From an uncultured Pseudomonadota bacterium (GTDB lineage Bacteria; Babelota; Babeliae; Babelales; RVW-14), in assembly GCA_964354855.1 (NCBI GenBank), contig CAYHBO010000001.1:31045-95044 (forward strand): 64,000 nucleotides of DNA, written 5' to 3'. A program made the translations under genes and the position numbers. A model generated the notes under the pieces. That model was not told the origin of the DNA. It made no database searches and saw nothing but the letters and a program-made list of their open reading frames with translations. Every line of letters starts with the position of its first letter. Within the stretch, counting starts at the first letter, position 1. Below, piece by piece: positions 13,102 to 48,846 of this stretch.

Positions 13102-13229
13102 TGTAAAAATATGCCCTTTCGTTATACCAATCTTTTAAGTATCTCTCAAGATCATTGAATTCTAACAGCCAAAAAACTATGTTGAGTATTATTTCAAACG
13201 ATACCTATGGTGTTATTTTAAGGAGTCAT

Positions 13230-15254
13230 ATGAAATCACTCAGCTTTTTTTGTAAATTTATTACCGGGGTTATCTTATCTTTAGGGATCATTATTTCTGA
13301 AACTATACACGCCCAAGAAATAAGAATTATTTCTTCTAATATTTTAGGTGAAGATGCTTATAAGAAATTTGTAAAGTGCGAAAAAATGGACTTTACAAAA
13401 CGCGCAAAAGCTTTTACAGCCTTCTTAAAAACCCAAGGGCCTGACGTTATGTGCTTACAAGAAGCAGATGCTTCATGGGCTACTGAACTACAAAAAATAA
13501 CTGACTACACCTTCCATTGTAACCAAAGCTCATATCTTGCCATCTTATTTAATCCTAAAAAATTAATTTTGATAGAAACAATTACTGACATTCAACATGA
13601 AAACCAAAGCAAAGGTATTCAAGCTTATCGATTTAAAACCATGACAGGACAAGAATTCGTTGTGATAAATATTCATGCATTGTTTAAGCCTGCAGCTCAA
13701 ACGTATGAATATGATCACCAAAAAACCTTAACCCCTCTAACAAACATTCCCGTCTTCGCCATGGGTGATTTAAATACAGGGTCAACTAATAATGCCACGT
13801 TCTTTCCAACACTATTCAAAGATTTTCAAGAACTTACAAAAGAAATTACCGTTACTTCACGAAATGTTAACACTAATCAGCCAGAAAAACTTGATTACAT
13901 CTATGGCCGCAACATTGATAAACTTGGCATAATAGACTCTGTATGTACCGTTCCCTCTTGCAGTAAAAATAATGTTAAATTACTTTTACCACACGTCGCC
14001 AGCAAAGCATTTAATACAGCTGACGAAAACAATTTCTACTCAGATCATGCCGCCGTTATAGTAACTATTACTCTCCCGGAAAAAGAACCTACCTATAGCC
14101 ATCCTACAATACTTGGAATTGTAGAATGGGACACTGATGGATTCTTAATTTTGAAAAAAGATAATGGAACGATAGTTAGGGTTGCACCTAATTCAAAAAA
14201 TCCTATACAGGTTTACATCATCGACAGATCCAAGCCGGGACAAGAAAATTTTGGGTTTAAGAAAGACGATAAAGTGGCTCGCGATTACTCCACAACAACG
14301 CTCACGCCTCCACCAGCAAACATTCCGGGCAAAGCCACCGTCAACGAACTTTCCAAACTCAAAGGATCTCTAGAACAAGTCGGCGAAACCATTAAGTTCT
14401 TACAAAAAAAATTAAAAAACTTACAAAAAACAATCCCACAAGCACCATCGCAACAAAAAGAACCTCAATTAAATACAACAGACAATGTTTACATCACGCT
14501 TGTACAAGGCGCCGATCTTCCATACCAACGCTTTGTAAATTGGCAAAAATCAGCAACAGTAAACCCTGCAAATTCAAGTTTAAATTCTGGAGGACTCGGA
14601 GAAGGTGCTTTTATTGAAGCAGCAACCGGCAATAGCGCTTGGGGAGATTTACTTAAAAAAAATAGAACATACTGGGAAGGTAAGGGTTGGACATCTGGCG
14701 ATAAGGCAAAAGGAAATGCCGTTATTTCTGATGCTGGCAACTTATGCACAGCGCAACTTATGAATTATATCATTCATGCCGTAGGGCCCTGTTTAGGTAA
14801 AACAGAGGGTAGAAAGCTCATATTAAAAGAAACGTACGAAAGTATTTTGGCGTTTGCCGACATGAAGCCATCAGATGATCTTGTTAAAATCGGACTTGGA
14901 GATAAAAATAATTACAAAGGCCTTGAGGCTGTTGCGATAAGCCTCGCTGGACTAGGCTCATGGGTGGGGGACCAAGGATTAGGAGTTGAAAGCAAACTTG
15001 TTATTGGCTATGTCCTCGATTACCTTAAAGCTTATCCAACATCACAACTCAAAGAGGTTCGATTTATTACCTACTCTAAAGAAGAATACGATATTTTTAA
15101 GACAGCACTTACATCTTTTGTCTCCCAAAATCGCCTCAAAATAGCAAACAACATTCCCTCTAATTTATTAACTACACTAAATCAAAGTTGCGTAAAAAAT
15201 CCAACAGGATATAAATCAAAAAATACCCCTTTAATTTTCACACTAATACGATAA
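13230..15254 (+). CDS. secreted endonuclease/exonuclease/phosphatase (EEP) domain - macrodomain fusion protein
   Basis: AAGGAG RBS precedes the ATG at 13230. EEP motifs: DVMCLQEAD, GDLN, YSDHAAVIV. Macro motifs at about 14487-15120: VNPANSSLNSGGLGEGAFIEAATG, YIIHAVGP, VRFITYSKEEYDIF. Confidence 0.8.
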   Translation: MKSLSFFCKFITGVILSLGIIISETIHAQEIRIISSNILGEDAYKKFVKCEKMDFTKRAKAFTAFLKTQGPDVMCLQEADASWATELQKITDYTFHCNQSSYLAILFNPKKLILIETITDIQHENQSKGIQAYRFKTMTGQEFVVINIHALFKPAAQTYEYDHQKTLTPLTNIPVFAMGDLNTGSTNNATFFPTLFKDFQELTKEITVTSRNVNTNQPEKLDYIYGRNIDKLGIIDSVCTVPSCSKNNVKLLLPHVASKAFNTADENNFYSDHAAVIVTITLPEKEPTYSHPTILGIVEWDTDGFLILKKDNGTIVRVAPNSKNPIQVYIIDRSKPGQENFGFKKDDKVARDYSTTTLTPPPANIPGKATVNELSKLKGSLEQVGETIKFLQKKLKNLQKTIPQAPSQQKEPQLNTTDNVYITLVQGADLPYQRFVNWQKSATVNPANSSLNSGGLGEGAFIEAATGNSAWGDLLKKNRTYWEGKGWTSGDKAKGNAVISDAGNLCTAQLMNYIIHAVGPCLGKTEGRKLILKETYESILAFADMKPSDDLVKIGLGDKNNYKGLEAVAISLAGLGSWVGDQGLGVESKLVIGYVLDYLKAYPTSQLKEVRFITYSKEEYDIFKTALTSFVSQNRLKIANNIPSNLLTTLNQSCVKNPTGYKSKNTPLIFTLIR

Positions 15255-15313: not shown

Positions 15314-16426
15314 ATGAAGCGTACATCGATATTATTACTCTTAGTGCCCAATAATTTTTGGCGCATTTTTACCGTATCATTTGATCTTATAAGACGTCAT
15401 CCTCGCGAAAGCGGGGATCCAGGGCTTACTTCTTTTTTAATTCTTTTTTTTGAATTACTTTTTATTAAAAAGACCTGGATCCACGCTTTCGCGAGGATGA
15501 CGTGCGGATTACTTATCTGCTTCTTCAATCAACAGATTTTTTGCAAAGAAAAAGAAACAGTACAAGAAATAATCGACACCCACAAAAAAACACTTTTTCA
15601 AACATATCCAACCAAAACAGAGCAACAGCAATTTACCAATGACCTTGTTGAGCAATCGTTCTCAGGCAAACAAGCAGATCTCTTTTTAAAAATGCATAGC
15701 GATAAAACTCAACACGAATCACTCCAATTTTTGTACACAACCATGTGGTCAGTGCTTGCTGAACATGGCTGGTGTACGTGGGATAGCTCCTGCCTCAAAG
15801 CACTCAAACAAGAACATGATTCTGGAAAAACGATTGTATACATCGGCGGGGGCTGTGATATTTACGAGCTCATCACCAATGGCATCTACAACATCATCGT
15901 CATAGACCCCATTTTACCAACCCAAAAAAATTATTACCCTGATGATTATCTTTATTTAATCCAAGGTTCAGGCCCTGATCATGGCCTGAATGATCAAATC
16001 ACCGGGCTTGCCGGCAACAAAAGGCTTACACTTAAGCGTAGCGGGTTTGAAAGTATGCCTGACTACATAAGCTTTAGCTTACCATCCGGGCAACAACGCT
16101 GTACTCAAGTATCAAAAACAACCTGGACCGTTCTTGATAAAAAACAACATCCGATTGGCACCATTATCTTTGATCGTAGATTTACCACACAAAAAGATTT
16201 TGAATTAGCACCAGACAGAGTGCTATTGTTTTCATGGAACGAGCTATTTTTTGTGATCAATGGTGAATGGGGGATCAAAACAAATCAATTTCAAGATGAC
16301 ATCACGCTTTTTATCAAGCAGCTCAGAAAGCCCATTACCAAAGAAATGATCGATAACATGCATCACGCCCATGAACTTAATCGTTCGAAGTTCAAATTTA
16401 TTGGCCTAGGAAGTCATGTTGTTTAA
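15314..16426 (+). CDS. paralog 1 of a triplicated secreted family (GG-x-D-[IV]-Y / IDP-x-LP-[TS]-Q domain)
   Basis: The roughly 230-aa C-terminal domain aligns with the next two ORFs (TIVYIGGGCDIYELITNGIYNIIVIDPILPTQKNYY, FDRRFTTQKDF, IKQLRKP). A full PE1 element lies in frame in the N-terminus. Confidence 0.6.
   Translation: MKRTSILLLLVPNNFWRIFTVSFDLIRRHPRESGDPGLTSFLILFFELLFIKKTWIHAFARMTCGLLICFFNQQIFCKEKETVQEIIDTHKKTLFQTYPTKTEQQQFTNDLVEQSFSGKQADLFLKMHSDKTQHESLQFLYTTMWSVLAEHGWCTWDSSCLKALKQEHDSGKTIVYIGGGCDIYELITNGIYNIIVIDPILPTQKNYYPDDYLYLIQGSGPDHGLNDQITGLAGNKRLTLKRSGFESMPDYISFSLPSGQQRCTQVSKTTWTVLDKKQHPIGTIIFDRRFTTQKDFELAPDRVLLFSWNELFFVINGEWGIKTNQFQDDITLFIKQLRKPITKEMIDNMHHAHELNRSKFKFIGLGSHVV
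15394..15503 (+). repeat. PE1 palindromic element, full copy (inside CDS)
   Basis: ACGTCATCCTCGCGAAAGCGGGGATCCAG ... CTGGATCCACGCTTTCGCGAGGATGACGT with an AT-rich spacer. Confidence 0.9.
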
Positions 16427-16457
16427 AGAAAAATTAATTTTATTCAGGAATACTTAC

Positions 16458-17840
16458 ATGCTTAAAAAGTTAAATTACTTATTGCAGACATTGCAACGCC
16501 TTACGTCATCCCAGCCTTCGCTGGGATCCAGGTCTACTCTACTACTGCTTCTTCTGACTACTTTTCTTACCTCTCATGCCACCCCCGTTATAAAAAACGG
16601 ACCCAATGTATTTGAAAAATGGGTAACGAAACAAACGATCCTAACTGATCGATCTCCAACCGAAATGGCCGCACTCCTCAACGATCACTACTTAACTCAA
16701 TTTCGTGCTTACTACGAAAGTAATTTTGCACTACTAAAACCATTAACTGGATTTTTAAATAGGTTAACCGCAGAGCAAATTAACCAGCATGGATACCGAT
16801 TTGAATCAATATTACCAGCGCCTATGACATCAACTTTAACCTCTTTATACGATCAACTTGAACACAATCAACAAGCATTTGTTAATACCTTAAAGCACCT
16901 CCAATTTTCATCTCCTATGATTAATCACATTGAAGAATCGTGTAAATATGACTTCACCGTTGAAAAATATAAAATGCTGTCACGGTTGCTTTTCAAACAA
17001 GAAAACCGATTTAAAGAAGACGAGTTTCTTCTTGGGATGGCCAATAGAATTTTTGAATACTGTTTTCAAGAAGTCTCTTTTCCCCACTACCAAGCATTAC
17101 TTAATAATCAAAGTGATTATCCCCTCGTACGATTTTTACACAGCACTCTATGGTACAACTTAGTTGGCAGCAACTGGCTCAACTGGCATAAAAATAGCTT
17201 AGAATTAATAGAACAGTCAGCCGATGCAGGCAATAGAATTATGTACCCAGCAGGCGGAACCGATGTATACATGCTCCTACAAAACGGCGTATACAATATC
17301 ACCATTGTTGATCCATTTTTACCAACACAAAAAGATTACTACACAGAAGGGTGGGATTGGTTAGTAAGAAGCAATACTCAAGATGGTGGCATCAATGATG
17401 AAATCAACTTTAATCCACCATACCGGCACCTTACATTAAAGCGAACCGCTTTTACCGAAGGCGATTCATTTTATGCTAAACTTTCTACCGGCGATGCCGT
17501 AATGATCAAAAAAAGCACCACCACCTGGACTGTTCTTGATGGTAGCACCAATGCAACGCTTGGTTCCATCATTATTGATCGACGTTTCACAAACCAACAC
17601 GATTTCACCGTTAAGAATAATCCCATTGTTATGTCATACGATGAACTTGTATGTGCCATATCTCCAGAGATGCTGAGTGGCTGGGGCATCGACCCTGACC
17701 TAATACATGATGATCAAGTCATCATCGTTAAGCAATTACGTAAACCGGTTCCCAAAAAAATACTGCAAAACTTGCGCATTGCAATTGCAATGAATGCCGT
17801 AAATATGAAGTTTATTAGTTTTGCATCAGATCCAACATAA
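16458..17840 (+). CDS. paralog 2 of the triplicated secreted family
   Basis: RIMYPAGGTDVYMLLQNGVYNITIVDPFLPTQKDYY, IDRRFTNQHDF, VKQLRKP. A solo PE1 arm lies in the leader (RLTSSQPSLGSRS). The start could be 16416. Confidence 0.6.
   Translation: MLKKLNYLLQTLQRLTSSQPSLGSRSTLLLLLLTTFLTSHATPVIKNGPNVFEKWVTKQTILTDRSPTEMAALLNDHYLTQFRAYYESNFALLKPLTGFLNRLTAEQINQHGYRFESILPAPMTSTLTSLYDQLEHNQQAFVNTLKHLQFSSPMINHIEESCKYDFTVEKYKMLSRLLFKQENRFKEDEFLLGMANRIFEYCFQEVSFPHYQALLNNQSDYPLVRFLHSTLWYNLVGSNWLNWHKNSLELIEQSADAGNRIMYPAGGTDVYMLLQNGVYNITIVDPFLPTQKDYYTEGWDWLVRSNTQDGGINDEINFNPPYRHLTLKRTAFTEGDSFYAKLSTGDAVMIKKSTTTWTVLDGSTNATLGSIIIDRRFTNQHDFTVKNNPIVMSYDELVCAISPEMLSGWGIDPDLIHDDQVIIVKQLRKPVPKKILQNLRIAIAMNAVNMKFISFASDPT
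16503..16532 (+). repeat. PE1 solo arm (variant hairpin CCCAGCcttcGCTGGG), inside CDS
   Basis: ACGTCATCCCAGCCTTCGCTGGGATCCAGG. Confidence 0.75.
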
Positions 17841-17850
17841 GGAGCGCGCC

Positions 17851-19365
17851 ATGATATTTTTTTTAACTATTTTTTTGGCATTATTATTTTTTATGCTGTT
17901 ACTTTTTACCTCTAAGTCATCCTCGCGCATGCGGGGATCCAGTCTTTTTCTTAAAAATAAGCAGCTTTTAACAAAGAAGGCATGTATCCCCGCATGCGCG
18001 AGGATGACGTCACAAGAACCTCATTGGCTTCTCTCAACCACAAAGAAAATAACATTAAACGTTCTTTTAATTCTACTTATCATCCCCTCCATCAACGCCA
18101 TCGAAGCAAAACGCGCCTCCGATGTCTTTAAAAAATGGCTTACCTGGCAAGAGTGCTTTACCCCAGTAAACCTTGCTGACGAACAAGAAAAACTTGCTCA
18201 ACAATTTTCAAAGAACTTTAAAACTGTTTATGAACAATACCTTCCGCTCCTTCGCACTTACCACACGCCATTTTTGCAAAAACTTACTGATAGCCAAGTA
18301 AGCGAAGCTGGACATCAGATCACTGATTTAAGACATGAAAATATTCGATCAACATTAACCAAACTCTACGTGGCGGCACAAAACGATATGCCAACATTTA
18401 TCAACATGCTCAATAATTTATCATTCAACGAACATTCTCTAAGTATTCCTCAAGCATTTACACAAGATGTCATTGATAACAGCTTACGAACCAATGCCGC
18501 TCTATGTTCTTGTATCTTTGGTCAAGACAACCAACACAGCTCAGTTAACACGCTAAAAGACACTGCTATCCTTTTTGAAGTTGCCAACAAGTTTGCTAAT
18601 TTTTGTTTTGAGCCTAAAACATTCCCCCTATTTCAAGAAATGTTACTCCAAAAAAAATACCGCGCTACCGCACAGTTCCTCTTTTCAACCATGCATCAAC
18701 GCTTTTCAGGTTCAGGCTGGCACAATTGGAGTACACAATGTTTAAGCGATCTCAAAACAGCATCAGAAGAAGGAAAAACAGTTGTTTATGTCGCAGGAGG
18801 GAGTGATATTTATCAACTCATCACTCATGGCATTTACAACATTAAAGTGATTGATCCTCAGTTGCCATCACAACCACAATACTATGCTGATGAGTGGGCA
18901 TGGATTATAAAAGGCGACATTGGAGATCAAATTGTTTTTGACACACAGAACATCATCATGACGAGAACAAGTTATCAAGAAGAGAATAAGTCATTCATAG
19001 CTCGATTAGAAGATGGACAAGAAGCAAGTATTAACCCAAGTAAAACAGTCTGGTTTATTGCTAATATCGATGGGAAAAAGCTTGGATCATATACATTAGA
19101 ACGTCGTTTTGTGAGACAAGAAGATTTTAAAGAAGCGCCCGATCAGGCGCTTCTTATGTCATTTAATGAACTCTTTTTTATCGCATTGCCTGATGTATTG
19201 CAAGGCTGGCATATCGAACCGAGTAAATTTACTGATGATCTTAACATTTTCATCAAACAGCTTCACGAGCCAGTCACTAAGGCAGAAGTGTGTAATATGC
19301 GCAATGCAAGCTTATTGAATGCAACAGATTTTAAGTTTATCCCACTAGGCTGCAGAATTAATTAA
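17851..19365 (+). CDS. paralog 3 of the triplicated secreted family
   Basis: AAGGAG RBS. TVVYVAGGSDIYQLITHGIYNIKVIDPQLPSQPQYY, LERRFVRQEDF, IKQLHEP. A PE1 element lies in frame between two hydrophobic segments. Confidence 0.6.
   Translation: MIFFLTIFLALLFFMLLLFTSKSSSRMRGSSLFLKNKQLLTKKACIPACARMTSQEPHWLLSTTKKITLNVLLILLIIPSINAIEAKRASDVFKKWLTWQECFTPVNLADEQEKLAQQFSKNFKTVYEQYLPLLRTYHTPFLQKLTDSQVSEAGHQITDLRHENIRSTLTKLYVAAQNDMPTFINMLNNLSFNEHSLSIPQAFTQDVIDNSLRTNAALCSCIFGQDNQHSSVNTLKDTAILFEVANKFANFCFEPKTFPLFQEMLLQKKYRATAQFLFSTMHQRFSGSGWHNWSTQCLSDLKTASEEGKTVVYVAGGSDIYQLITHGIYNIKVIDPQLPSQPQYYADEWAWIIKGDIGDQIVFDTQNIIMTRTSYQEENKSFIARLEDGQEASINPSKTVWFIANIDGKKLGSYTLERRFVRQEDFKEAPDQALLMSFNELFFIALPDVLQGWHIEPSKFTDDLNIFIKQLHEPVTKAEVCNMRNASLLNATDFKFIPLGCRIN
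17914..18010 (+). repeat. PE1 element, diverged full copy (inside CDS)
   Basis: AAGTCATCCTCGCGCATGCGGGGATCCAG ... ATCCCCGCATGCGCGAGGATGACGT. Confidence 0.85.
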
Positions 19366-21933: not shown

Positions 21934-23211
21934 ATGAAAAACAGATATGGTCTATTATTTGTTATCTTTTTAGAGGGAGTATCTATTTGCGCAACTCCAG
22001 CCACCATTACTAAATCAAAAGAAATATCAAAAGTAGGAACCAAGCAACTTAACGTCATGGTGTATTTTGCCGGCAACAATGACCTTTACGACATATGCGT
22101 TAAACAGATGCAACAGATGGCGGTCATTGGCTCTTTGTTTCATGTAAATTTTATTACGCAGCTTGATGTTTTAAATGAACACAAAGTAAAAAGATATTAC
22201 ATAGCAAAGAACGATATTATTGAACTTGAAGAAATATCAGAAGGCCCTGAAGCCATTAGTGGCACCCCCGCAAGCCTCGCATCCTTTGTACAATGGGGTA
22301 TGGAAAAATTTCCTGCACGAGATTTATTTTTAATTATTTCTAACCATGGTGATGGCATCAAAGATCGCAATTACTGGAGTCACGCTAAAACCAAACGCGG
22401 TATAGCCATCAATAACCATGCCAACTGTTATCTCACCAATCAAGGCCTTGAAGAAGCTCTTAGGTTTATTTCCCAACGCGTTCTTGGTGGACGCAAGATT
22501 TCGCTCGTACTTACGGATGCATGCTTTATGTCAATGGTCGAAATTTGCTCTCAAATTAAGCGCTCGGTAAAACTTTTCGTAGGCTCTCAAGACACAGAAC
22601 CATTTCTTGGCTATAATTATACCGATCTTTTTAGCGTTTTCACCGACTCTGATGGAGATCATCTAAATTCAGAAAGATTTGCTCGATGGGCAGTAGATAG
22701 TTATATCAACGAACATAAAAATTCCGGGAAATCAATCACACATGCAGCTATTAACCTAGAATCCATTGAAAAAGTTGAAGACAACCTTAAACAATTAGCA
22801 CTCTTATGTTCCGAATGCATCGACCAAAAACCTGAGTTTTTTGAAGCAATATATAACATTAGAGAACATACGAACATCAAATTTAGAGACTTAGATTATA
22901 TCGATTTGCACCACTTTTATAACGACTTAATCAACATTATTACTCCAATGCTATCAGAAAAGTCTCATCGACGTCGCGAGGTTGTACGCCTTGCACTCGA
23001 AGGAAAATCATTACTGGGTGATTGTATTCTTGCAAACCAAACCGGCCCTATAAATCCTGGGGCCATGGGCCTGTCACTTTATTTTCCAATACACACGATC
23101 CATCAATCATATTATCCAACTATTTTTAATCAAAAAACGGGCTGGAGTACATTTTTAAAGACGTACTTATACCGCTTGTATCACACATTAAGCAGGAAAG
23201 CAGGGGCCTAG
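21934..23211 (+). CDS. clostripain-like (C11) cysteine peptidase, secreted
   Basis: Signal peptide. NVMVYFAGNNDL, His motif ISNHGDG and Cys motif TDACFMS have C11-like spacing. Confidence 0.65.
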   Translation: MKNRYGLLFVIFLEGVSICATPATITKSKEISKVGTKQLNVMVYFAGNNDLYDICVKQMQQMAVIGSLFHVNFITQLDVLNEHKVKRYYIAKNDIIELEEISEGPEAISGTPASLASFVQWGMEKFPARDLFLIISNHGDGIKDRNYWSHAKTKRGIAINNHANCYLTNQGLEEALRFISQRVLGGRKISLVLTDACFMSMVEICSQIKRSVKLFVGSQDTEPFLGYNYTDLFSVFTDSDGDHLNSERFARWAVDSYINEHKNSGKSITHAAINLESIEKVEDNLKQLALLCSECIDQKPEFFEAIYNIREHTNIKFRDLDYIDLHHFYNDLINIITPMLSEKSHRRREVVRLALEGKSLLGDCILANQTGPINPGAMGLSLYFPIHTIHQSYYPTIFNQKTGWSTFLKTYLYRLYHTLSRKAGA

Positions 23212-23260
23212 AAAAAACATCCACTTTGTTATAGTCATTTGATAATCGATAGGATATCCC

Positions 23261-23824
23261 ATGGAAAAAAAGACGTTACTCAATGAGCTCACCAAAAAAT
23301 ATAAAAATTGCCAAGGCTGCCCACTCGCAAAGCTCGGTAGAACTCAAGTTGTTTTCGGCGTCGGCAACCCTGATACCAAGCTTATGTTTATCGGTGAAGC
23401 TCCGGGACGAGATGAGGATCTTAACGGCGAACCATTCATAGGTCGCTCTGGAAAATTACTCACACAAATTATTGAAGACATGGGTCTTTCACGGAGCGAA
23501 GTTTATATTACTAATGTCGTCAAAAGCAGACCACCCAATAACCGAACCCCAATAAAACAAGAACGCGAAGCTTGTAAAACATTAATTTTGGTAAAAGAGA
23601 TCGACATCATTAAACCAAAAATCATCTGTACCCTCGGGTCACCGGCAACTAAAGCACTTCTTGGAGATGATATACAAATTTCACAGGCTCGTGGTAAATT
23701 TGCTGAGTATCGCGGCATCCCAGTCATGCCAACCTATCACCCGGCATATTTACTACGTAATCCCATTGCAAAACATACAGTGTGGGAAGATATGAAAAAA
23801 ATTATGGAAGAACTTAAAGATTGA
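23261..23824 (+). CDS. uracil-DNA glycosylase, family 4
   Basis: C..C...R.QVVFG.GNP, GEAPGRDEDLNGEPFIGRSGKLL, HPAYLLRNP. Confidence 0.9.
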   Translation: MEKKTLLNELTKKYKNCQGCPLAKLGRTQVVFGVGNPDTKLMFIGEAPGRDEDLNGEPFIGRSGKLLTQIIEDMGLSRSEVYITNVVKSRPPNNRTPIKQEREACKTLILVKEIDIIKPKIICTLGSPATKALLGDDIQISQARGKFAEYRGIPVMPTYHPAYLLRNPIAKHTVWEDMKKIMEELKD

Positions 23825-23887
23825 GAAAAAGTAACTAAAACTTATAAACTCCATCTTTTATTTTTTTAGCAGCTGATTCTTAGACTT

Positions 23888-23975
23888 GTCATCCTGAACT
23901 TGCCTGCCCGCCGAAGCTCCTGGCTCGACGTAGCTTTAGCGTAGGCGGCTTGGCGTAGGTTGGTTTCAGGATGAC
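23888..23975 (+). repeat. PE3 palindromic element, long form, intergenic
   Basis: GTCATCCTGAACTTGCCTGCCCGCCGAAGC...CTTGGCGTAGGTTGGTTTCAGGATGAC. Confidence 0.85.
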
Positions 23976-23990
23976 AATTAAGAAGACAAA

Positions 23991-25448
23991 TCAACTTTTC
24001 GTCACCGGGTCAGGGATTAATAGAATATTCAACGGATCTTGCGGCCAGGTTCTGCCTGATGGTACCCATAAAAATCGCTTACCGGTACGCTCCTGAATCG
24101 ATCTTAATGGATAATCATAAACCTTCATAGCACAAGCATCATACGTTTCAGCAAGGATAATCTCAACACATCCCTCACTATTCAACTTAGAGCCTGATAC
24201 GGTAGACACGGTAAACACCGGTCCGTAATGTTGCATGTAAAATTGTGGGCTTTCACCAGAGACCACTTCTTTCCAGTCCAAAGGCCTGTTTTTAGGATCT
24301 TCAAATGGCTTTCGTAGCAAGTCTGCATCGATATTTATTTCTTTATCTCTGAACAACTTTAACACCGCAATAGAATCTTGATGGCCGCGAATAAGGGCAT
24401 CTACCTGTTGATTATTAAGTATACATTCAACGGCAAACAGATCCGCACTATGAATATCATTCCCACGATTAGATTTCGAAAATAATTTTCTACGCAAGCT
24501 TTCTTCGATTGCTTCATTATCACAATTTTGTTTAACCAATATGGCCCTTTCTGGATCATGATGAATGATATCCGTCCATAAGTAATGTGAAAAATAAACC
24601 CCTACAATCGGATTATAAAGATCTTTCAAAAAAATTGGTTTAAAGGAAGCCTGGCTACTCAATAATAGCTCCTTAGGATCAAATTTAGGCTCAGGAGCAC
24701 CGTGACAAAATTGAAGAATTGCACCCCCACAGCGCACATAGTGTGTCAATGCAAAACATGAGTAAAGTGTATCTAGTTGCTCAATAAGACCTTCAGGTTC
24801 ATTAAACAAATACTTATCCATAATTTCTCGGATGAGGCCTTTAGCTCCATAATATCTATTAATCTCTACCCATTCATGATTCCCGCGCAACAAAATAACA
24901 CGATCAAAATTAAGCATTTTAAGACAAAGCAAGAGAGCTAGGCATTCAACACTATATTTTGTTCTATCAACATAATCGCCAATAAAAATAAGAGAACATC
25001 CAGGGTTGAGCGTTAAATCTTCATTGAGCACTCCCTCAATAACCCAACGCCGCAACTGCCGCAATAACGTAAAATAAGATCCATGAATATCTCCAACGAC
25101 AAAAAGATGATCTTCTGGCGTTAAATGCCATGATGAAGCATGGCCAACATGGCCATCTTTATTGCTGATGCCAAAATCAGCAAGTTGCCTTTCTGTCTCT
25201 ATGATAAACATATCAATCAATGCAGAAAAATCTTTCTGATAAATAAGAGCATCCAGATGCTTATCTAACAATGGAATTTCTGGATAATTTTGTTCACTCC
25301 ACCATACCGTCTCTTCAAGTTCTTGTAGGGTTTTGAAATCATAGAAATCTTTAAGTTGCTTAAAATCATCAGGACCTGCAAGAAGGGCCGGATGCAGAGA
25401 AAGAAAGATAGCGAGAAGAAGTTGTGTAATTAGAAATTTAAATTTCAT
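23991..25448 (-). CDS. secreted PPP-family (calcineurin-like) Ser/Thr phosphatase, paralog A
   Basis: Signal peptide. GDIHG, GDYVDRT and LLRGNHE are the PPP signature GDxHG/GDxVDR/GNHE. Confidence 0.8.
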   Translation of the reverse strand: MKFKFLITQLLLAIFLSLHPALLAGPDDFKQLKDFYDFKTLQELEETVWWSEQNYPEIPLLDKHLDALIYQKDFSALIDMFIIETERQLADFGISNKDGHVGHASSWHLTPEDHLFVVGDIHGSYFTLLRQLRRWVIEGVLNEDLTLNPGCSLIFIGDYVDRTKYSVECLALLLCLKMLNFDRVILLRGNHEWVEINRYYGAKGLIREIMDKYLFNEPEGLIEQLDTLYSCFALTHYVRCGGAILQFCHGAPEPKFDPKELLLSSQASFKPIFLKDLYNPIVGVYFSHYLWTDIIHHDPERAILVKQNCDNEAIEESLRRKLFSKSNRGNDIHSADLFAVECILNNQQVDALIRGHQDSIAVLKLFRDKEINIDADLLRKPFEDPKNRPLDWKEVVSGESPQFYMQHYGPVFTVSTVSGSKLNSEGCVEIILAETYDACAMKVYDYPLRSIQERTGKRFLWVPSGRTWPQDPLNILLIPDPVTKS

Positions 25449-25501
25449 ATGAGGTGCTCAACTATTTTTTACTTCGTTCATAAAACATTCTTCGCAGCCA
25501 T

Positions 25502-25634
25502 ACGTCATCCTCGCGAACGCGGGGATCCAGGCCTTACTTACTTTTACAGACCTTCTAAAAACTTGTTAGAAAAGAAGTATAAAAATTTTAAAGTAGAAAA
25601 AAGTTCTGGATCCCCGCATTCGCGAGGATGACGT
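25502..25634 (+). repeat. PE1 element, full copy (intergenic between the two phosphatase genes)
   Basis: ACGTCATCCTCGCGAACGCGGGGATCCAGG ... CTGGATCCCCGCATTCGCGAGGATGACGT. Confidence 0.9.
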
Positions 25635-25715
25635 AGTCAAAAACCCAATTTCTCATAAAATTTCATAAAATCTCAAATCCTCAGAAGATATCGTTCTTTC
25701 TAAAAAAGTAACCGT

Positions 25716-27338
25716 TTATTGAGGCCAATCTTCAGGATTTTGTTGAGCAGAAGGCCACCGACCTGTAACCGTTCTGACTTCAGGTTCTACATCAGCAGCA
25801 GTTTCTCTTCGCTGCCGCATAAACCTATCTCCACCATATTCTTCATCTAAATCCCCAGTATGAGACAAGTCTAAAAGGCTAAAGGGAATATCTTCATCTT
25901 CACCACCTCGTCGCTGTAACCGCGCCAAATTACGTCTTGGCGGCAATGGCGTTAACGATCTATCCTGAGGTGAAAGATCTCTTACAGGCTCAATCACTAA
26001 TGGATCTTGAGGCCAAACATTGCCAGATGGTCGCCACCTAAAACAGTTATTCACGCGCTGATTATAAGGGAGCAAGGGATAATCATACACTTTCATCACA
26101 CATTTATCATAAGTTTTTGCAAGAATAATTTCTACACACCCCTCACTATCAATTTTTGATCCAGACGCCGCAGATAAGGTAAAAACAGGGCCATAGTTTT
26201 TCATATAAAATTCTGGATTACGACCCTCTACAACATCTACCCAGTTAAGTGGAGCATTTCTTGGATCAGTAAATGGATTAACCATTGTATCCGTATCAAT
26301 AATCACTTCTTTCTCTCTAAATAATTTTAATACTGCTATCATATCCTGATGCCCACGAATAAGAGCATCAACAAAGGTTGACTTAAGAATACGATCTATA
26401 GCAAATAAATCAGCACTAACCAAATCATGCCCTCGAGCAGAAGATGAAAATAAGTTTGCATTCAAGCTCGATTCAATAGCCAAATAATCACCTTGCTTTA
26501 GAAAAGCCTCTCTTGCTGGATCATGATGAATAATGTCGGTCCACAAGTAGTGTGAAAGATTAACATTTTTCGATTCTAATTCTTCTTTTTCAAGTAAAGA
26601 AAAAAACGAATCCTGACCCAATATTAATTCAATTGGAGGATTTTTTGGCTCAGGAGCCCCATGACAAAACTGCAACAGCGTACTGCCACAACCAACATAG
26701 AGCGTTAATGTAAAACATAAATACAATTGATCTAGCTGATCAATAACTTCTTGAGCCTCCCTAGAGTACTTATTTCTAATCTCTTGTGTAAAGCCATAAT
26801 CTGCATAAGAATTATTCATTGCAACCGATTCATGATTACCTCGTAATAACACAACCCGATCTTCATTAATTAATGCTAATAAAAGCATAATCGTTAAACA
26901 TTCTAAGCCGTACACTGTTCGATCAACATAATCACCAATGAAAACAAGTGAGTACCCCGAGAGAAGTCTTAAATCTTCCGTCATCACTCCTTCAAGAACC
27001 CAACGATCAAGTTGCCGCAACAATGAAAATAATGATCCATGAATATCTCCAACCACAAAAATTCGATGTTCAGGGCCTAGCACCCATCCCTGAGCATACC
27101 CAACCCCACCTGAAGCATTTGCGCCCTTAAGCTTACGCTGTATAACGCTTATAAACTCATCCATCAAGGCACAAAAGTCTTTTTTAGAAATAGAAATTCT
27201 TGTATTAGAGAAATGCGGAATTTCTGGATAGGTAGAAAAAAGCTGCCTGAGCCCAGAAACTGTTTTAAATTCGTCGGGAATGGCAAGTAAAGATGGTATG
27301 ACCAGTAAAAAAAAAAGGTTTAAAATTTTCAACCTCAT
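25716..27338 (-). CDS. secreted PPP-family Ser/Thr phosphatase, paralog B, with extended charged C-terminal tail
   Basis: GDIHG, GDYVDRT, LLRGNHE. Collinear with paralog A, plus about 85 extra C-terminal residues rich in R/E/D/P. Start placed at MRLKILNLFF. Confidence 0.8.
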   Translation of the reverse strand: MRLKILNLFFLLVIPSLLAIPDEFKTVSGLRQLFSTYPEIPHFSNTRISISKKDFCALMDEFISVIQRKLKGANASGGVGYAQGWVLGPEHRIFVVGDIHGSLFSLLRQLDRWVLEGVMTEDLRLLSGYSLVFIGDYVDRTVYGLECLTIMLLLALINEDRVVLLRGNHESVAMNNSYADYGFTQEIRNKYSREAQEVIDQLDQLYLCFTLTLYVGCGSTLLQFCHGAPEPKNPPIELILGQDSFFSLLEKEELESKNVNLSHYLWTDIIHHDPAREAFLKQGDYLAIESSLNANLFSSSARGHDLVSADLFAIDRILKSTFVDALIRGHQDMIAVLKLFREKEVIIDTDTMVNPFTDPRNAPLNWVDVVEGRNPEFYMKNYGPVFTLSAASGSKIDSEGCVEIILAKTYDKCVMKVYDYPLLPYNQRVNNCFRWRPSGNVWPQDPLVIEPVRDLSPQDRSLTPLPPRRNLARLQRRGGEDEDIPFSLLDLSHTGDLDEEYGGDRFMRQRRETAADVEPEVRTVTGRWPSAQQNPEDWPQ

Positions 27339-27535
27339 ATCTACCCCCCGTAGAAGAAACATCACATTTAATTAAAAATTACCCACATAAAAAGCATGCT
27401 TGTTTTAGTTTAAAAAAGTAAACGGTTACTCAATTACTCACAAAAACTCTCTATCTTAAACTGTTAACGCTTTCTTGCCATTTTGATTCATATGTGTAAG
27501 ATATTTCTTAGGTTTTTTTCCAAAGGAGTTCTATT

Positions 27536-32953: not shown

Positions 32954-33685
32954 CTATATTTTATCAATTTCTTCTTCCCAAGCCCCCTGAGCATCTTCCG
33001 GATCTGGTTCAAAACGTCGCCTTAAAAGCTCATCTTTAAAGCCTTCAGGATTCTCATTACTTACCTGTTCTCCTTGAGCATAAATCTCTGCTTCGTCTGT
33101 CCCCGGAAGCCTATTTCTTAAACATTCTATATATCTCACCGCAAGAGCTTTATGATATGCATGCAGCAAGCGCCCCTCGCTTTGTGAATACGAATCAATC
33201 ATCTGAATCATCATTAGAAGACCTCCCAATATTTCTGCATTCTTAAAAAGAGAATAAAAAAAAGCATCATAAGCTTCTTCTTCATGTTTATTTATTAAAT
33301 CTCTTATCACCACACGAGCCTTATCCGATAATCGTACACCTATAATATTTCGAACAACCTCTATCAAATCAGTATCACTGGCACTTGCTTGAGTAGTCCT
33401 CGTTTTTCTACAAAGATCATCATAAATTGCGTTAACAATAGCATCATGTTGCTGTTCAGTCAGCTCAGTAACTTCTTGCTCTTCTTGTGGATGCGCTAAC
33501 GCAGGCAATAACACAGAGCAAGTTGAACCTGGTTGTTGAGGAGAGGATCTCAAGTAAGGCGATCTAACAGAACCCTTCGGCCATTGAGTCCCTTTTTTAC
33601 CAGACGGTTTAGGATTCATAGCACTCACACCACCACCGTAAGCCAAACAGAACATTATCAACATCAATATATTTTTTATCGTCAT
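32954..33685 (-). CDS. array paralog P1 (secreted, unknown function)
   Basis: Leader MTIKNILMLIMF...VSAMNP. Core motifs: IVNAIYDD, LIEVVRNIIGVRLSD, HEEEAYDAFF....NAEILGG, YHKALAVRYI. C-terminal motif FKDELLRRRF. Confidence 0.6.
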   Translation of the reverse strand: MTIKNILMLIMFCLAYGGGVSAMNPKPSGKKGTQWPKGSVRSPYLRSSPQQPGSTCSVLLPALAHPQEEQEVTELTEQQHDAIVNAIYDDLCRKTRTTQASASDTDLIEVVRNIIGVRLSDKARVVIRDLINKHEEEAYDAFFYSLFKNAEILGGLLMMIQMIDSYSQSEGRLLHAYHKALAVRYIECLRNRLPGTDEAEIYAQGEQVSNENPEGFKDELLRRRFEPDPEDAQGAWEEEIDKI

Positions 33686-33757
33686 AACACCACCCCCCTT
33701 GAGTTACTCGTTTTATAAAAAATCGATATTTAATGTACACCCCAGTAATTCAACACA

Positions 33758-34714
33758 TCAAGGCTTCTCACGTTTACGCATGAGACTAATGCCTTTAATT
33801 GCTAGTTCAAGCTGTTTTATTGAGTTAATAGCAGGGGGCCTTGGGGTTAAGCATTTTACAACTATTTCAGGAATAGCTTCGTATTGAGGCTTACGGCGCT
33901 GCTTAAAAAGGGTCTTGTTAAAGCTTTCTTGATCATTTTGGCGAAATTTTATCGCCTTACGATACTTTTTATCCTCATCCACCGTAAAGAATTTTGAACG
34001 AATGCCATTTATATTCCTTATTGCAAGAGCTTTATAAAATGCGCATGAAAACTTAGAATCTTTACATTCATGATAAGAATAAAGGTAAATATACTCCGCT
34101 ACCAGCATAATACCCCCAAGGGCCTCAGCATTATTTAAAACAGCATCAAAATAAAGATCATAAGCCTCTTCTTTGTGCTCTTTGATTAAAATTTCTATGT
34201 CTTCGATAGGTAATTGATTTTTTACAATTTTTTGAACCTCATCGATAAGAGCCGCACGATCATTACATCCTTCACAGCAGGCATTGCGAACTTCATGATC
34301 ATAAATAGCAGTAACAATAAACCCTCGCTGCTTACCATTCAGCAGAGCAAGAAGAGAGTTTTTTCTAGATGCTATTGAAGAAAAAGAGGTAATCTGTTGC
34401 TCTAATAAATCGAGTGATTCTTTTGATGGGATGTGAAGTTGCGGATCAGAAGTTTTATGATGATTAAAAATATTTTTGCCTTGGAAATGATGCGGGGGCC
34501 GATGATAAGCATCAGATCTTATAATAGGCAAATGAAAAGAATCACTTGAATCAGTTTTTTGTGGAGACCTTGACGAAATACCACAAGAAGAGGCATTAGA
34601 ACAAAATTTACGCGTAGACCGAGGACCTTGTTCAGATTGAGGCTTGCTGGGTTGCATGGCAGAGCTGAATTCACCATAAAACATCATCAATATAAATATA
34701 TTTTTTATTTGCAT
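33758..34714 (-). CDS. array paralog P2
   Basis: Leader MQIKNIFILMMF...SSAMQP. Core motifs: IVTAIYDH, LIDEVQKIV, HKEEAYDLYF....NAEALGG, FYKALAIRNI. C-terminal motif FNKTLFKQRR. Confidence 0.6.
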   Translation of the reverse strand: MQIKNIFILMMFYGEFSSAMQPSKPQSEQGPRSTRKFCSNASSCGISSRSPQKTDSSDSFHLPIIRSDAYHRPPHHFQGKNIFNHHKTSDPQLHIPSKESLDLLEQQITSFSSIASRKNSLLALLNGKQRGFIVTAIYDHEVRNACCEGCNDRAALIDEVQKIVKNQLPIEDIEILIKEHKEEAYDLYFDAVLNNAEALGGIMLVAEYIYLYSYHECKDSKFSCAFYKALAIRNINGIRSKFFTVDEDKKYRKAIKFRQNDQESFNKTLFKQRRKPQYEAIPEIVVKCLTPRPPAINSIKQLELAIKGISLMRKREKP

Positions 34715-34762
34715 AACACCCCCCCCAGTTATTAATTTACAAAAAATTTAGTCAAAATAAAT

Positions 34763-35266
34763 TTATCGATTCACTGACTTTATAAAATCTTCATTTGTGT
34801 ACAAAGGCTTCACTTCAAGATCATTCAGTACAGCATCATAAGCAGCAAGAAGTTTTAACTCCCCTTCACCTGGCTTGCACCTAGATAAGATAAGACATAC
34901 TTCCCAATGTTTGAGGTCTGGATTACGGTGCAGTGTATTAAGAAATCTTTTTTTTAAATAATTAAAGAAAACATCGAAAACATATGTATTAACCAAAAGA
35001 ACTGCTTCTTGAAGGCTAAACCCCTCTTTTACAATACTGTCCAAAAGAACTCTTTTTGGATCAGTGTTTATAACCATTATCGCTTCCCCAAAGCGCAACA
35101 AACAGTAACCCTTGATAATTGCCTTAATTTTATCAATCTTATCCGGCACCAGCGTTCGAATAAATTCGGGAATTTCCACAGCAGGCTGCTCTGGTTGATT
35201 CATTGCTATAATATTGCCAAAGAAGCTACTCACAAAAGTCACGTAAAGAATATTTTTAATCTTCAT
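34763..35266 (-). CDS. array paralog P3 (divergent)
   Basis: Leader MKIKNILYVTFV...IIAMNQP. LLDSIVKEGFSLQEAVLLVNTYVFDVFFNYL aligns with P4 and P1. Confidence 0.55.
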   Translation of the reverse strand: MKIKNILYVTFVSSFFGNIIAMNQPEQPAVEIPEFIRTLVPDKIDKIKAIIKGYCLLRFGEAIMVINTDPKRVLLDSIVKEGFSLQEAVLLVNTYVFDVFFNYLKKRFLNTLHRNPDLKHWEVCLILSRCKPGEGELKLLAAYDAVLNDLEVKPLYTNEDFIKSVNR

Positions 35267-35298
35267 AACTACTCCCCTTAAGTTAATTTGATAAAAAA

Positions 35299-35781
35299 TT
35301 ATGCGTTAGATTCAGCAAATTCTATATAAATATCAAGAAGAAAAGCTATGTCGAGACTAGGCCTACAAGCTTTAAGAACTTTAATTTTATCTTCATGATC
35401 GTTAGTAGTATTCAATCTAAGCACAAGATATTCACGGTATACAACAGGAGCATAAACACTAACTAATTCAGACACTTGATCATCAGAAAGAGAATTTCCA
35501 AAGCCTCCTTTGACAACATCTACAAGAGACAGTGAACGATGAGGCCCTTTTGGATAAAATCTTGAATGAAGTGCATCTCTCAAGGTTTTCTTAACTGCTG
35601 TTTTTTGATCTTTAGATAGCGCCTTAATCCACTCAGCAGCCATTGGCGATGCTGGTTCTTGAAAAGAATTATTTGGGACAACAAGTTGTCCATCTAGTCC
35701 AGTAGGACGTTGCTCCATCGCAACAATATTACCAGTAAAACCACAAGCGAGAATTAACATCATAATATTTCTTATCGTCAT
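35299..35781 (-). CDS. array paralog P4 (divergent)
   Basis: Leader MTIRNIMMLILA...IVAMEQ. LVDVVKGGFGNSLSDDQVSELVSVY aligns with the P1 segment LIEVVRNIIGVRLSD. Confidence 0.55.
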   Translation of the reverse strand: MTIRNIMMLILACGFTGNIVAMEQRPTGLDGQLVVPNNSFQEPASPMAAEWIKALSKDQKTAVKKTLRDALHSRFYPKGPHRSLSLVDVVKGGFGNSLSDDQVSELVSVYAPVVYREYLVLRLNTTNDHEDKIKVLKACRPSLDIAFLLDIYIEFAESNA

Positions 35782-35953
35782 AGAAAGATCCTTATAATTA
35801 ATTTATTTTTGTACGCTATTCTTCGATTGTCGCTGGTACAAGGCGATTTAAGGAAATGCAGTATATTTTTAATCGACCTACTCGTCAATAGGTTTCGCTA
35901 ACAAATTGTAATTATCAAGTTTTTTTAACAGATTGTTCTTGTAGAACCTGAAC

Positions 35954-36688
35954 TCATCGTTTGTATAAAGCTCCATAGTATTCAACTGGACTAACAACGC
36001 TCAAGTTTCCTGCAGTTTCATATTTTTGCTCATCTATTTTTTCAAACACTCTCCCACCTTCACAAAGAAGCAGATTGTCTCTTACCATCGCAAGAGGCTT
36101 CCATAAGACTCCCCATCCTTTGGGTACAATTTTTTTTATAACTTCATCTCTAAAGAAATCCGCCACCTCTCTTACTAATTGACGCCCGCCTAAATCTCTA
36201 GCATTAATAAATGTATCTCGAATAAAATTGGTGATTGCTTTTTTCTTAGCTTCAAGAATGACCCTGGAGCCATCTTCATCCTCGATTACATCACTTACTA
36301 GCCCCTGCACCAATCTATTTAATTCTTCTACTTCTGGACCCATTCTGAGCAAAACAGTAGAGACATATTGATGAAATAATACCTGATCAAAACTTTTAAC
36401 CTCTTCTTCTTGATTAAAAAATTTCATAATTTCACCATAATAATAACCATGAAGAACATCAATGAGTGGTTTATCCAAGGCTCCCAAGCGAGTTGGGTTC
36501 TCTTCACTTGATTCTAAGGACCACCCCGGCGTTTTAACCGCAACAACGCCCACCCCTTCTTCGTCTGTAACCGTTATGCCTTCTTGTGTTAATTCCCGAT
36601 TTAAGTTCTCGTCTGCTGACTGCATGGCAATAACATTTGATCCAAAGCCCCACAACCAAAACAGTACCGCTAAGTTTTTTATTTTCAT
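35954..36688 (-). CDS. array paralog P5
   Basis: Leader MKIKNLAVLFWL...VIAMQS. FINARDLGG aligns with the NAE.LGG motif. Its ATG overlaps the P6 stop codon (ATGA). Confidence 0.55.
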   Translation of the reverse strand: MKIKNLAVLFWLWGFGSNVIAMQSADENLNRELTQEGITVTDEEGVGVVAVKTPGWSLESSEENPTRLGALDKPLIDVLHGYYYGEIMKFFNQEEEVKSFDQVLFHQYVSTVLLRMGPEVEELNRLVQGLVSDVIEDEDGSRVILEAKKKAITNFIRDTFINARDLGGRQLVREVADFFRDEVIKKIVPKGWGVLWKPLAMVRDNLLLCEGGRVFEKIDEQKYETAGNLSVVSPVEYYGALYKR

Positions 36689-37287
36689 CCTCCCCCTCCA
36701 CCACCCATTTTTGATCGTCTTCGCAATAAGCGCTCTCCAAACTCGTTGCTATCTCTGGCCTTAAGTCTTTCTACTCGTTCACTTTTTACCCAATCTTGCT
36801 CTGTCTTAGGTCGATTATAAAGCGCTCGTATAACCGAATGATTCAGCACTTCATCATACATTGGTAATAACCATTGATCGCTTGGTTTAAACCGCAGCCA
36901 CGCATCAAAAACATATTCATACCCACTCACAACTTTCGCAACAAGATCAATCCCTCCAAGCTCTTCTGCATTAAGAAGAACGTCGGTAAAAAATTGAAAA
37001 TAAGCCTCAGGTCGATAGCCATTTCTCAAAGTAAAAATCGCATCAGGAGTTAACCTCAATTCAGGAACACTGGCTTTTATGTCTTGCTCAAGCTTTACTC
37101 GAGCATCAGGGTCCCTTTTATACAATCGAATTATATCATCATGAAGAGCGGTAATTATTTTATGTGTTTGAATCTTAGAATGAGCCTGTACCCATGCCGG
37201 TCGCTTATCTTGATTAACCTGCATAGCAAATATAAATTGATAGGTAGAAGAAACAACGCAGCACAAGAGAATATTTTTTATCTTCAT
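36685..37287 (-). CDS. array paralog P6
   Basis: Leader MKIKNILLCCVV...IFAMQ. Motifs: IITALHDD, PEAYFQFFTDVLLNAEELGG. C-terminal FGERLLRRRS followed by a Gly6 tail. Confidence 0.6.
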   Translation of the reverse strand: MKIKNILLCCVVSSTYQFIFAMQVNQDKRPAWVQAHSKIQTHKIITALHDDIIRLYKRDPDARVKLEQDIKASVPELRLTPDAIFTLRNGYRPEAYFQFFTDVLLNAEELGGIDLVAKVVSGYEYVFDAWLRFKPSDQWLLPMYDEVLNHSVIRALYNRPKTEQDWVKSERVERLKARDSNEFGERLLRRRSKMGGGGGG

Positions 37288-48564: not shown

Positions 48565-48846
48565 TCATTTAACTTAAGATCTTTTTCTTGGAGATATAAA
48601 AAAAGAATTATCAACAACCCACGTAGTCTATCGGAACTTTTCCAAAAAGTGAAGGCATACCGAGTACGCTTTAAGACATTTCTCATTTTTAATCTTTTCT
48701 TATTGAAAAAAAACTTTTTCTCTCCTTCTTCTTAAATATAAATATTTATATTTAGTAGTAGTAGTAGGCTCGGCGAAAATTGTTGATAACTCAAAAAAAA
48801 ATCAAAATTATATCGTTCTATAACGCGTTATCAACCGGTTTTGAAT

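Follow-up and report, generated by a model that had tools for sequence, protein, structure and literature searches.

In a 64,000-nucleotide stretch of a Dependentiae-like genome (hereafter the window; assembly GCA_964354855.1, contig CAYHBO010000001.1, positions 31,045 to 95,044), a single gene at 13230-15254 (+) encodes a 674-residue protein in which an endonuclease/exonuclease/phosphatase (EEP) domain and a MacroD-like macrodomain follow one putative export signal. The gene is intact and both folds are present. Comparison with orthologues suggests that the fusion is recent and derived, and the same two kinds of domain appear to have been joined independently in a second genome. As to function, we give a little short of an even chance to the possibility that the protein is a Sec-exported, two-enzyme, host-directed effector that acts on ADP-ribose-containing substrates, a role that we infer from its domains, its relatives and the lifestyle of its lineage.

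Gene, export signal and domain architecture

The uninterrupted open reading frame (ORF) spans 13155-15254 (+), and we assign its start to the ATG at 13230, which lies 4 nt after a Shine-Dalgarno sequence, AAGGAG, read directly at 13220-13225 (+). This start also fits the homologue P0001, whose BLASTP alignment begins at its own Met1. Two alternative starts, at 13155 (TTG) and 13179 (ATG), were discarded, since both the Shine-Dalgarno site and the P0001 homology favour 13230. From there, the single intact reading frame opens with a putative Sec-type signal peptide (aa 1-28, MKSLSFFCKFITGVILSLGIIISETIHA/QE; 13230-13313, +), which was called by direct reading of its n-h-c layout together with a hydropathy heuristic (score 2.50). 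It has basic residues K2 and K9, a core from F10 to I22 and a cleavage site IHA/QE after residue 28, and in the BLASTP alignment it is paired with the corresponding peptide of P0001. We thus predict that the protein carries a Sec-type export signal. The signal peptide is followed by the EEP domain, a small beta-domain, a helix, the macrodomain, a variable tail (aa 633-666) and a C-terminal strand motif. A preliminary description of this gene had proposed an EEP-macrodomain fusion with an N-terminal export signal, and this is borne out by Pfam, AlphaFold2 (AF2), Foldseek and the signal layout, with each of the two domains passing the curated Pfam threshold.

The EEP domain covers aa 31-283 (13320-14078, +), as delimited by Pfam, a family alignment, AF2 and Foldseek. 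Pfam PF03372 (Exo_endo_phos) matches aa 35-228 (E 2.6e-10; 40.9 bits against a cut-off of 24.5), and NCBIfam EEP models match as well, far under their equivalog cut-offs. The EEP motifs quoted in the preliminary description were all located, namely DVMCLQEAD (with E78), GDLN (D180, N182) and SDHAAV (D272, H273). In a 22-member family alignment, N37, E78, H149, D180, N182, D222, D272 and H273 fall in columns that are at least 90% conserved, and from what is known of the superfamily we take these residues to have the catalytic roles of their counterparts in APE1 and TDP2. As aligned, the EEP catalytic residue set is complete, and phosphoester hydrolysis is predicted.

The AF2 model of the EEP half, built on the family alignment, has a predicted local distance difference test score (pLDDT) of 85 and a predicted TM-score (pTM) of 0.77. 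Its subfamily was compared by Foldseek against the PDB only, where it gave 87 matches at E ≤ 1e-3; the matches listed are EEP enzymes or EEP-family entries. TDP2, nocturnin and PDE12 lead with probability 1.0, and ANGEL2 and the LINE-1 endonuclease were also matched. The top matches are near-tied, with E-values from 1e-14 to 1e-12, target-normalised TM-scores (TMt) of 0.45-0.76 and identities of 13-19%. The nearest solved neighbours are all phosphoesterases of nucleotides or nucleic acids (TDP2, PDE12, ANGEL2 and nocturnin, the last solved with NADPH bound), and sphingomyelinase, inositol phosphatase and DNase I are absent from among them. TDP2 acts on 5'-tyrosyl-DNA, PDE12 is a phosphodiesterase and ANGEL2 acts on 2',3'-cyclic phosphates. 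This branch thus provides the best structural matches, and its metal-binding and catalytic residues are common to the fusion protein. Unlike the branch, however, the EEP half belongs to a small family of its own, with about 25 representatives, LLPH and TAR.V motifs and, by the signal heuristic, largely secreted members.

The macrodomain (aa 420-632; 14487-15125, +) was assigned from Pfam PF01661, AF2, Foldseek and alignments. The Pfam Macro profile matches aa 444-545 (E 1.5e-6; 28.6 bits against a cut-off of 22), and NCBIfam matches of the MacroD/YmdB type lie far under the equivalog cut-offs, the best being to an O-acetyl-ADP-ribose deacetylase model. Again, all the motifs named in the preliminary description were found, at aa 444-467 (VNPANSSLNSGGLGEGAFIEAATG), 513-520 (YIIHAVGP) and 610-623 (VRFITYSKEEYDIF). 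The AF2 model of this half, likewise built on a family alignment, reaches pLDDT 89 and pTM 0.85, and in Foldseek it matches YmdB, Af1521 and MacroD2 with probability 1.0 and TMt of about 0.65-0.83 (0.74-0.83 for YmdB and Af1521). Further structural matches are to macroH2A1.1, an Oceanobacillus macrodomain and viral macrodomains, and a profile from the macro family of the fusion protein retrieves hundreds of YmdB-like proteins. Neither the complete protein nor either half alone had a significant match among PDB sequences, the macro half having none better than E 0.1.

The fold, the NxxN asparagines, the HAVGP strand and the loop positions are common to the fusion protein and to MacroD-type proteins (E. 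coli YmdB, Af1521, human MacroD1 and MacroD2). Unlike these, the fusion protein is predicted to be secreted, has an extra N-terminal helix and a C-terminal strand motif, and differs around the ligand site in reading GGLGEG and ISLAGLGSW and in a shifted Asp. The C-terminal motif, PLIFTLIR (aa 667-674; 15228-15251, +), was examined with DSSP on the AF2 model and by reference to the C-termini of relatives. DSSP assigns a strand at residues 295-299 of the modelled fragment, paired into the fold at pLDDT of about 92, and we read the motif as a predicted structural strand that completes the sheet. A role as a sorting signal was considered and rejected on account of this confidently placed, paired beta-strand.

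Origin of the fusion

An exhaustive HMMER search of 1.84 billion cluster representatives returned 47 hits; none repeats the architecture of the fusion protein, and only one, P0026, carries both domain types, the others falling into an EEP-only and a macro-only group. A word-indexed protein search with the full-length query gave three relatives, all EEP-only. Genome collections, scanned both with the protein alone and with an alignment of 8 EEP sequences, yielded no relatives, and nothing was found in metagenomes, scanned with the protein alone and with a 3-orthologue alignment, or in a viral scan.

The two halves occur separately in relatives. P0001 (463 aa, 44% identity) corresponds to the N-terminal part, from the signal peptide through the EEP domain to the middle domain, and ends at aa 353 of the fusion protein. 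P0004 (329 aa) and P0049 (332 aa) are macro-only proteins with signal peptides of their own that are 52-57% identical to aa 369-674, with the homology beginning at their mature N-termini (BLASTP). These relatives also clarify what lies between the two domains, where the preliminary description had placed a linker of about 140 aa. A joining region does exist, but it is not a plain linker, as it contains a conserved beta-domain and a helix of the macro module. The small beta-rich middle domain (aa 289-353; 14094-14288, +), recognised by P0001 homology and AF2, shares 54% identity with the last 65 residues of P0001 (BLASTP) and is modelled with four strands at pLDDT 56-81; a Pfam profile search with it gave a single match, to BPL_C, which was non-significant. 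Next comes the fusion junction (aa 354-368, STTTLTPPPANIPGK; 14289-14333, +), which is set by BLASTP homology boundaries: that with P0001 stops at aa 353, and residue 25 of P0049, just past its signal peptide, aligns with aa 369. The junction leads into a long coiled-coil-like helix (aa 369-401; 14334-14432, +), recognised by AF2 and by homology to P0004 and P0049. In the model it takes up residues 2-28 of the macro fragment (about 27 residues) at pLDDT 92-95, and its homology to the mature N-termini of the stand-alone P0004 and P0049 places it in the macro module.

The contigs of P0049 and P0004 (L003 and L002, respectively) are syntenic with the window, as judged by tblastn and gene tables. 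All share the order mutL, ADH/GFO, ugd, wecB, a surA-like gene on the opposite strand, the macro gene and a par-family gene, and in L003 the collinearity extends to comEC, a C11 peptidase gene, a Metallophos gene, ompH, lpxD, prs and pilQ. In both of these nearest syntenic relatives the orthologous position is occupied by a macro-only gene, and most other members of the macro family are likewise built of a signal peptide, a helix, a macrodomain and the C-terminal motif, which argues that the stand-alone form is ancestral. Since the syntenic orthologues are macro-only and the EEP half is a separate secreted protein elsewhere, the gene is best read as a recent fusion, which appears derived and clean, with its junction at a domain boundary. 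In this scenario, a P0001-type secreted EEP gene, including its C-terminal beta-domain, would have been placed before the resident macro gene and would have lost its stop codon. A 15-residue junction would then join the EEP part to the mature macro part, the redundant signal peptide of the latter having been lost.

A less eventful explanation would be that the join is accidental, through neutral deletion or insertion or through an assembly error, and that the halves act on unrelated substrates. Such an origin would fit with the fusion being known from a single sequence, with the halves being separate in relatives and with there being no conserved EEP/macro neighbourhood elsewhere. On the other hand, the ORF is unbroken, the junction lies exactly at domain boundaries with the second signal peptide gone, the flanks are collinear with two relatives, which speaks against a gross chimera, and an independent EEP...Macro fusion is found in another genome. 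With these points on both sides, we hold an uncoupled fusion to be rather improbable.

The fusion in the other genome, P0026 (MCB9493333.1, annotated as 'macro domain-containing protein', 1009 aa), consists of a signal peptide, an EEP domain, a DnaJ domain, a second, degenerate EEP domain, a low-complexity linker and a canonical macrodomain. Its gene (L005 8001-11030; JACKCO010000004.1 of the metagenome-assembled genome GCA_020633995.1) lies between lpxC and an M50 peptidase gene, near ribosomal protein genes. Like the fusion protein of the window, P0026 has a signal peptide, an N-terminal EEP domain of the same family and a C-terminal macrodomain of the same family, and is encoded in a Dependentiae-like genome. 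Unlike it, P0026 has the DnaJ and degenerate EEP domains in between, carries GGGVDGAIH and ISTGIFGY loops, is without the C-terminal strand motif and stands in another genomic context. Because the fusion in the window post-dates the split of its lineage from L002 and L003, and because the intervening domains and the contexts differ, the two events appear to be independent; by this comparison the pairing of EEP and macro recurs and has arisen independently twice. That two particular small families should have been joined on two separate occasions is a Rosetta-stone hint of a shared substrate or pathway.

The preliminary description was aware of no characterised protein with this pair of domains, and this agrees with our literature searches, the PDB and the 1.84 billion representatives; a literature search for an EEP-macrodomain effector or for Dependentiae macrodomains yielded nothing relevant. 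The combination is uncharacterised, but it is not unique, as MCB9493333.1 also pairs EEP with Macro.

Some further observations concern these relatives. The genome that encodes P0026, GCA_020633995.1, is labelled Epsilonproteobacteria/Campylobacterota at NCBI, a label that is probably wrong: its IF-2 is 47% identical to that of the window and ranks among Babeliales-labelled matches, and its nusA-infB-lpxK synteny is common to Dependentiae-like contigs, including one from a closer relative. The genomic context of P0001 differs from that of the window, in that a second, divergent EEP paralogue follows the EEP gene (L001 4303-5253). The EEP gene of P0038 and a NUDIX hydrolase gene next to it are in convergent orientation (L009 7230-7649), a single adjacency that may be due to chance; NUDIX enzymes also act on ADP-ribose. 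Lastly, Dependentiae have an expanded family of secreted macrodomain proteins (relatives P0014-P0050, metagenomes), with signal-like N-termini in at least 23 of 30. In many of these, a coiled-coil helix is combined with between one and four macro repeats and with a conserved P-x(1-3)-[FWY]-x-[LIVF]-x-[KR] motif at the extreme C-terminus, and P-x(1-3)-[FWY]-x-[LIVF] is found within the last 14 residues in about 16 of 30 relatives.

A possible host-directed effector

The window appears to derive from an obligate intracellular Dependentiae (TM6) bacterium of a deep Babeliales-like lineage that has no near genome in public reference collections, and its features fit such an origin. Dependentiae are a little-studied phylum of parasites of protists. 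The best named relatives of its IF-2 (45046-47391, -) are from Candidatus Babeliales/Dependentiae, at 40-50% identity, with two closer sequences at 79% and 71%, and its GC content is about 38%. In the cultured Dependentiae Chromulinavorax destructans, Sec signal peptides are present on 44% of proteins and on 78% of ankyrin proteins, and secreted nucleases and peptidases, including C11, have been proposed to be host-directed (PMC6561590). The window also encodes an ankyrin protein with a signal-like N-terminus, C11 peptidases, secreted Metallophos enzymes, a secretin and an ATPase of the type II secretion system/type IV pilus (T2SS/T4P) kind.

Under the effector reading, the protein would, after export, act on host-derived substrates that contain ADP-ribose. 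The macrodomain would bind, and possibly hydrolyse, the ADP-ribose of a modified protein, a nucleic-acid end or an NAD-derived nucleotide, and the tethered, metal-dependent EEP domain would cut a nearby phosphoester or phosphodiester bond. The net effect would be that host ADP-ribose signalling is erased or dismantled. The preliminary description had suggested that the protein could first bind ADP-ribosylated host targets and then process the modification, an idea that is plausible. The parts of this scheme that we infer are export past the periplasm, ADP-ribose binding, the identity of the substrate and the cooperation of the two domains. The reading is suggested by the signal peptide, by the way in which Dependentiae live, by the presence of DnaJ in P0026, by the expansion of secreted macrodomain proteins with up to four repeats, and by a precedent in Legionella. 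A J-domain requires Hsp70 and ATP, which are not present in the periplasm, and the DnaJ domain in P0026 thus suggests action in the host cytosol rather than the periplasm. Together with the lifestyle of the lineage and with the secretin and ATPase genes in the window, this domain is circumstantial evidence for translocation into the host.

The Legionella precedent consists of secreted macrodomain effectors that reverse host ADP-ribosylation, namely Lpg0081/Larg1 (PMC9191684, PMC10989772) and MavL (PMC11668277). The former reverses the ADP-ribosylation of ADP/ATP translocases by Ceg3/Lart1, and the latter removes ADP-ribose from ubiquitin. In common with the fusion protein, both are macrodomain proteins, exported by an intracellular bacterium of protists; however, they are Dot/Icm (type IV) substrates that are paired with an ADP-ribosyltransferase (ART), whereas the fusion protein has a Sec signal, an attached EEP domain and no recognised writer gene close by. 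No specific sequence relationship to either was found, and neither is among the top-50 structural matches of the fusion protein. The SidE family offers a conceptual analogue, since a single exported effector joins ADP-ribose chemistry to a phosphodiesterase that cuts the ADP-ribose pyrophosphate (PMC8120803, PMC11668277). SidE is not homologous to the fusion protein, however, and differs from it in having an ART and a non-EEP phosphodiesterase and in being without a macrodomain.

Several observations weigh against the effector reading. A Sec signal by itself delivers a protein to the periplasm only, and signal peptides are very common in Dependentiae. The fused form was seen in one sequence only across all protein, genome-collection and metagenome searches, and no EEP and macro genes were found as neighbours in the contigs of relatives (L001, L002, L003, L006-L010), which leaves the two fusions as the only basis for functional coupling. 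The near-tied structural matches of the EEP half point to no single substrate class. In the macrodomain, loop 1 reads GGLGEG (aa 454-459), as the preliminary description had noted and as the alignments confirm, and this departs from the canonical ADP-ribose-binding GGG[VI][DA]G. The MacroD loop 2 motif, ISTG[IV][FY]G[YF], was not found either; its place is taken by ISLAGLGSW (aa 570-578), in a segment that reads ISLAGLGSWVGD and contains insertions. In the strand that in MacroD proteins reads GD[IL]T, with an Asp that contacts the adenine, the three orthologues share an insertion of two residues; the fusion protein has QGADLPY there, with the Asp displaced, and P0004 (QGNALPY) and P0049 (QGKGLPY) have no Asp.

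Compared with the MacroD class, the active site keeps the asparagines (N445 and N448) and differs at other positions: the segment GGLGEGAFI puts Glu458 in place of the Asp and Ile462 in place of the His of GGG[VI][DA]GAIH, and loop 2 is of another form, which is likewise seen in the alignment of P0004 and P0049. With these canonical motifs altered, the ligand could differ from ADP-ribose. At the same time, the ligand loops GGLGEGAFI.AATGN and GSWVGD.GL are identical or nearly so in the three orthologues, at an overall identity of only 52-57%, which suggests that the macro ligand site is under selection. The site may thus differ in detail from one for the canonical ADP-ribose ligand, and a hydrolase and a reader are not separable by sequence here.

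If the macrodomain were a catalytically silent reader, it could serve to target the EEP domain, as a nuclease or phosphatase, to places in the host that are ADP-ribosylated or rich in poly-ADP-ribose, for instance stress granules, damaged chromatin or organelle proteins that bear a modification. The replacement of the MacroD catalytic Asp and His by E458 and I462 and the remodelled loop 2 would fit with this, as would the fully intact EEP catalytic set and the presence of DNA- and RNA-end processors (TDP2, LINE-1 endonuclease, ANGEL2) among the closest EEP folds. However, many active macrodomains, for example those of the viral Mac1 type, are without the Asp and the His, so that a loss of activity is not readable from the sequence. 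Moreover, the stand-alone P0004 and P0049 are conserved and secreted without a partner domain, which points to an independent role for the macro module. We consider a reader-guided enzyme quite unlikely.

A better case can be made for nutrient scavenging, in which a secreted or periplasmic digestive enzyme would serve a bacterium that is unable to make its own nucleotides. The EEP domain would break down nucleic acids of the host or remove phosphate from nucleotides, the macrodomain would act on NAD-derived metabolites such as ADP-ribose-1''-phosphate and O-acetyl-ADP-ribose, and the products would be imported. MacroD-type enzymes act on free O-acetyl-ADP-ribose, the best NCBIfam match is to the deacetylase model, if far under its cut-off, and nocturnin, a close structural neighbour of the EEP half, acts on the free dinucleotide NADPH. 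The window has other putative secreted hydrolases, with two Metallophos proteins and two C11 peptidases, and Dependentiae are without complete metabolic pathways, their secreted nucleases, proteases and hydrolases having been proposed to serve in host breakdown (PMC6561590). The DnaJ domain in P0026, on the other hand, fits poorly with a purely digestive extracellular enzyme, the many multi-domain secreted proteins that have arisen in the macro family, with as many as four macro repeats, would suggest recognition of a target sooner than turnover of metabolites, and no transporter is linked to the gene. On balance, scavenging seems to us unlikely, but with a substantial chance of being right.

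Macrodomains also occur in DarTG and other ADP-ribose conflict systems (PMC8120803, PMC9967889), and the fusion protein might accordingly be an intracellular DarG-like antitoxin or an anti-phage component. No ART- or DarT-like gene was detected beside the fusion gene, and we rejected this reading, which we hold to be highly improbable, in view of the signal peptide, of the lack of PADLOC matches for the fusion protein or its neighbours, and of a gene context of housekeeping and envelope functions.

Neighbouring genes and other features of the window

Directly downstream of the fusion gene are three tandem paralogous genes, par1-3 (15314-19365, +), which were recognised from tblastn synteny and gene tables. 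In both syntenic relatives a single par copy lies 23 bp past the macro gene (L003 11023-11946; L002 1467-1898), and this conserved position suggests that par is a partner of the macro gene, possibly in an operon. The par proteins had no match in Pfam (E ≤ 10), in a PDB profile search or in PADLOC. No ART, sirtuin or DarT profile was matched in the neighbouring genes by Pfam or PADLOC, although the par genes, being without detectable homology, could hold a novel writer. In a more specific and more speculative form of the effector reading, Dependentiae would use a hitherto unrecognised class of Sec-secreted erasers of ADP-ribose: in the two fused forms, the macrodomain would dock on an ADP-ribosyl mark on a host protein or a nucleic-acid end, the EEP domain would cut the phosphodiester or phosphoanhydride linkage, and the par genes might supply the writer or an adaptor. 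To our knowledge, such two-step removal chemistry is not known for any EEP enzyme, and we regard this detailed version as a long shot.

The N-termini of the par proteins resemble signal or transmembrane segments, and they have an invariant motif, GG.D.Y...IDP, in which we tentatively see a likeness to Rossmann nucleotide-binding motifs. Each of the three par genes has at its 5' end a palindromic repeat akin to miniature inverted-repeat transposable elements (15393-15503, 17916-18008 and 16503-16535). One has 34-nt arms that are 94% complementary around a 42-nt spacer, a second has 26-nt arms (96%), and one is a half copy. These repeats explain the odd translated strings RHPRESGDPGL and IPACARMTS, and they suggest that the true starts of par1 and par3 lie further downstream than annotated.

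Elsewhere in the window, genes for putative secreted hydrolases are clustered at 21934-27365 and 49239-50666. They encode two clostripain-like peptidases of the C11 family and, in tandem, two Metallophos phosphoesterases of the calcineurin-like kind, all with signal-like N-termini; L003 has one Metallophos gene where the window has two. A second cluster, at 32954-37287 (-), consists of six tandem small paralogues of 160-318 aa with near-identical signal peptides (MKIKNI...AMQP/AMNP), and adjoins the genes for the secretin and the T2SS/T4P ATPase.

A candidate chromosomal replication origin was observed at 48565-49238. The GC skew changes from negative to positive at about 48-50 kb, and the AT-rich intergenic region holds a dense cluster of DnaA boxes, with perfect copies of TTATCCACA at 48858, 48880 and 49009 and TTATCAACA variants in an 11-bp register at 48847-48899 (-) and 48998-49040 (+). 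Over the whole window, 48 DnaA-box matches were observed against 19.6 expected. The candidate origin is flanked by nusA and a C11 peptidase gene, and not by dnaA.

Significance

Macrodomains are central in host-pathogen conflicts over ADP-ribosylation, as the viral Mac1 domains and the Legionella proteins Lpg0081 and MavL illustrate. Both domains of the fusion protein belong to known superfamilies, and their exact architecture appears nowhere else in the sequences that were searched. What the fusion adds could be gauged against the orthologues of sister genomes, which, being unfused, serve as a natural control. Should the two halves turn out not to cooperate, the locus would still document a recent domain fusion in the evolution of effectors. 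If their cooperation is real, however, the protein would represent a new route by which ADP-ribose marks are dismantled, and a new class of substrate for EEP enzymes.

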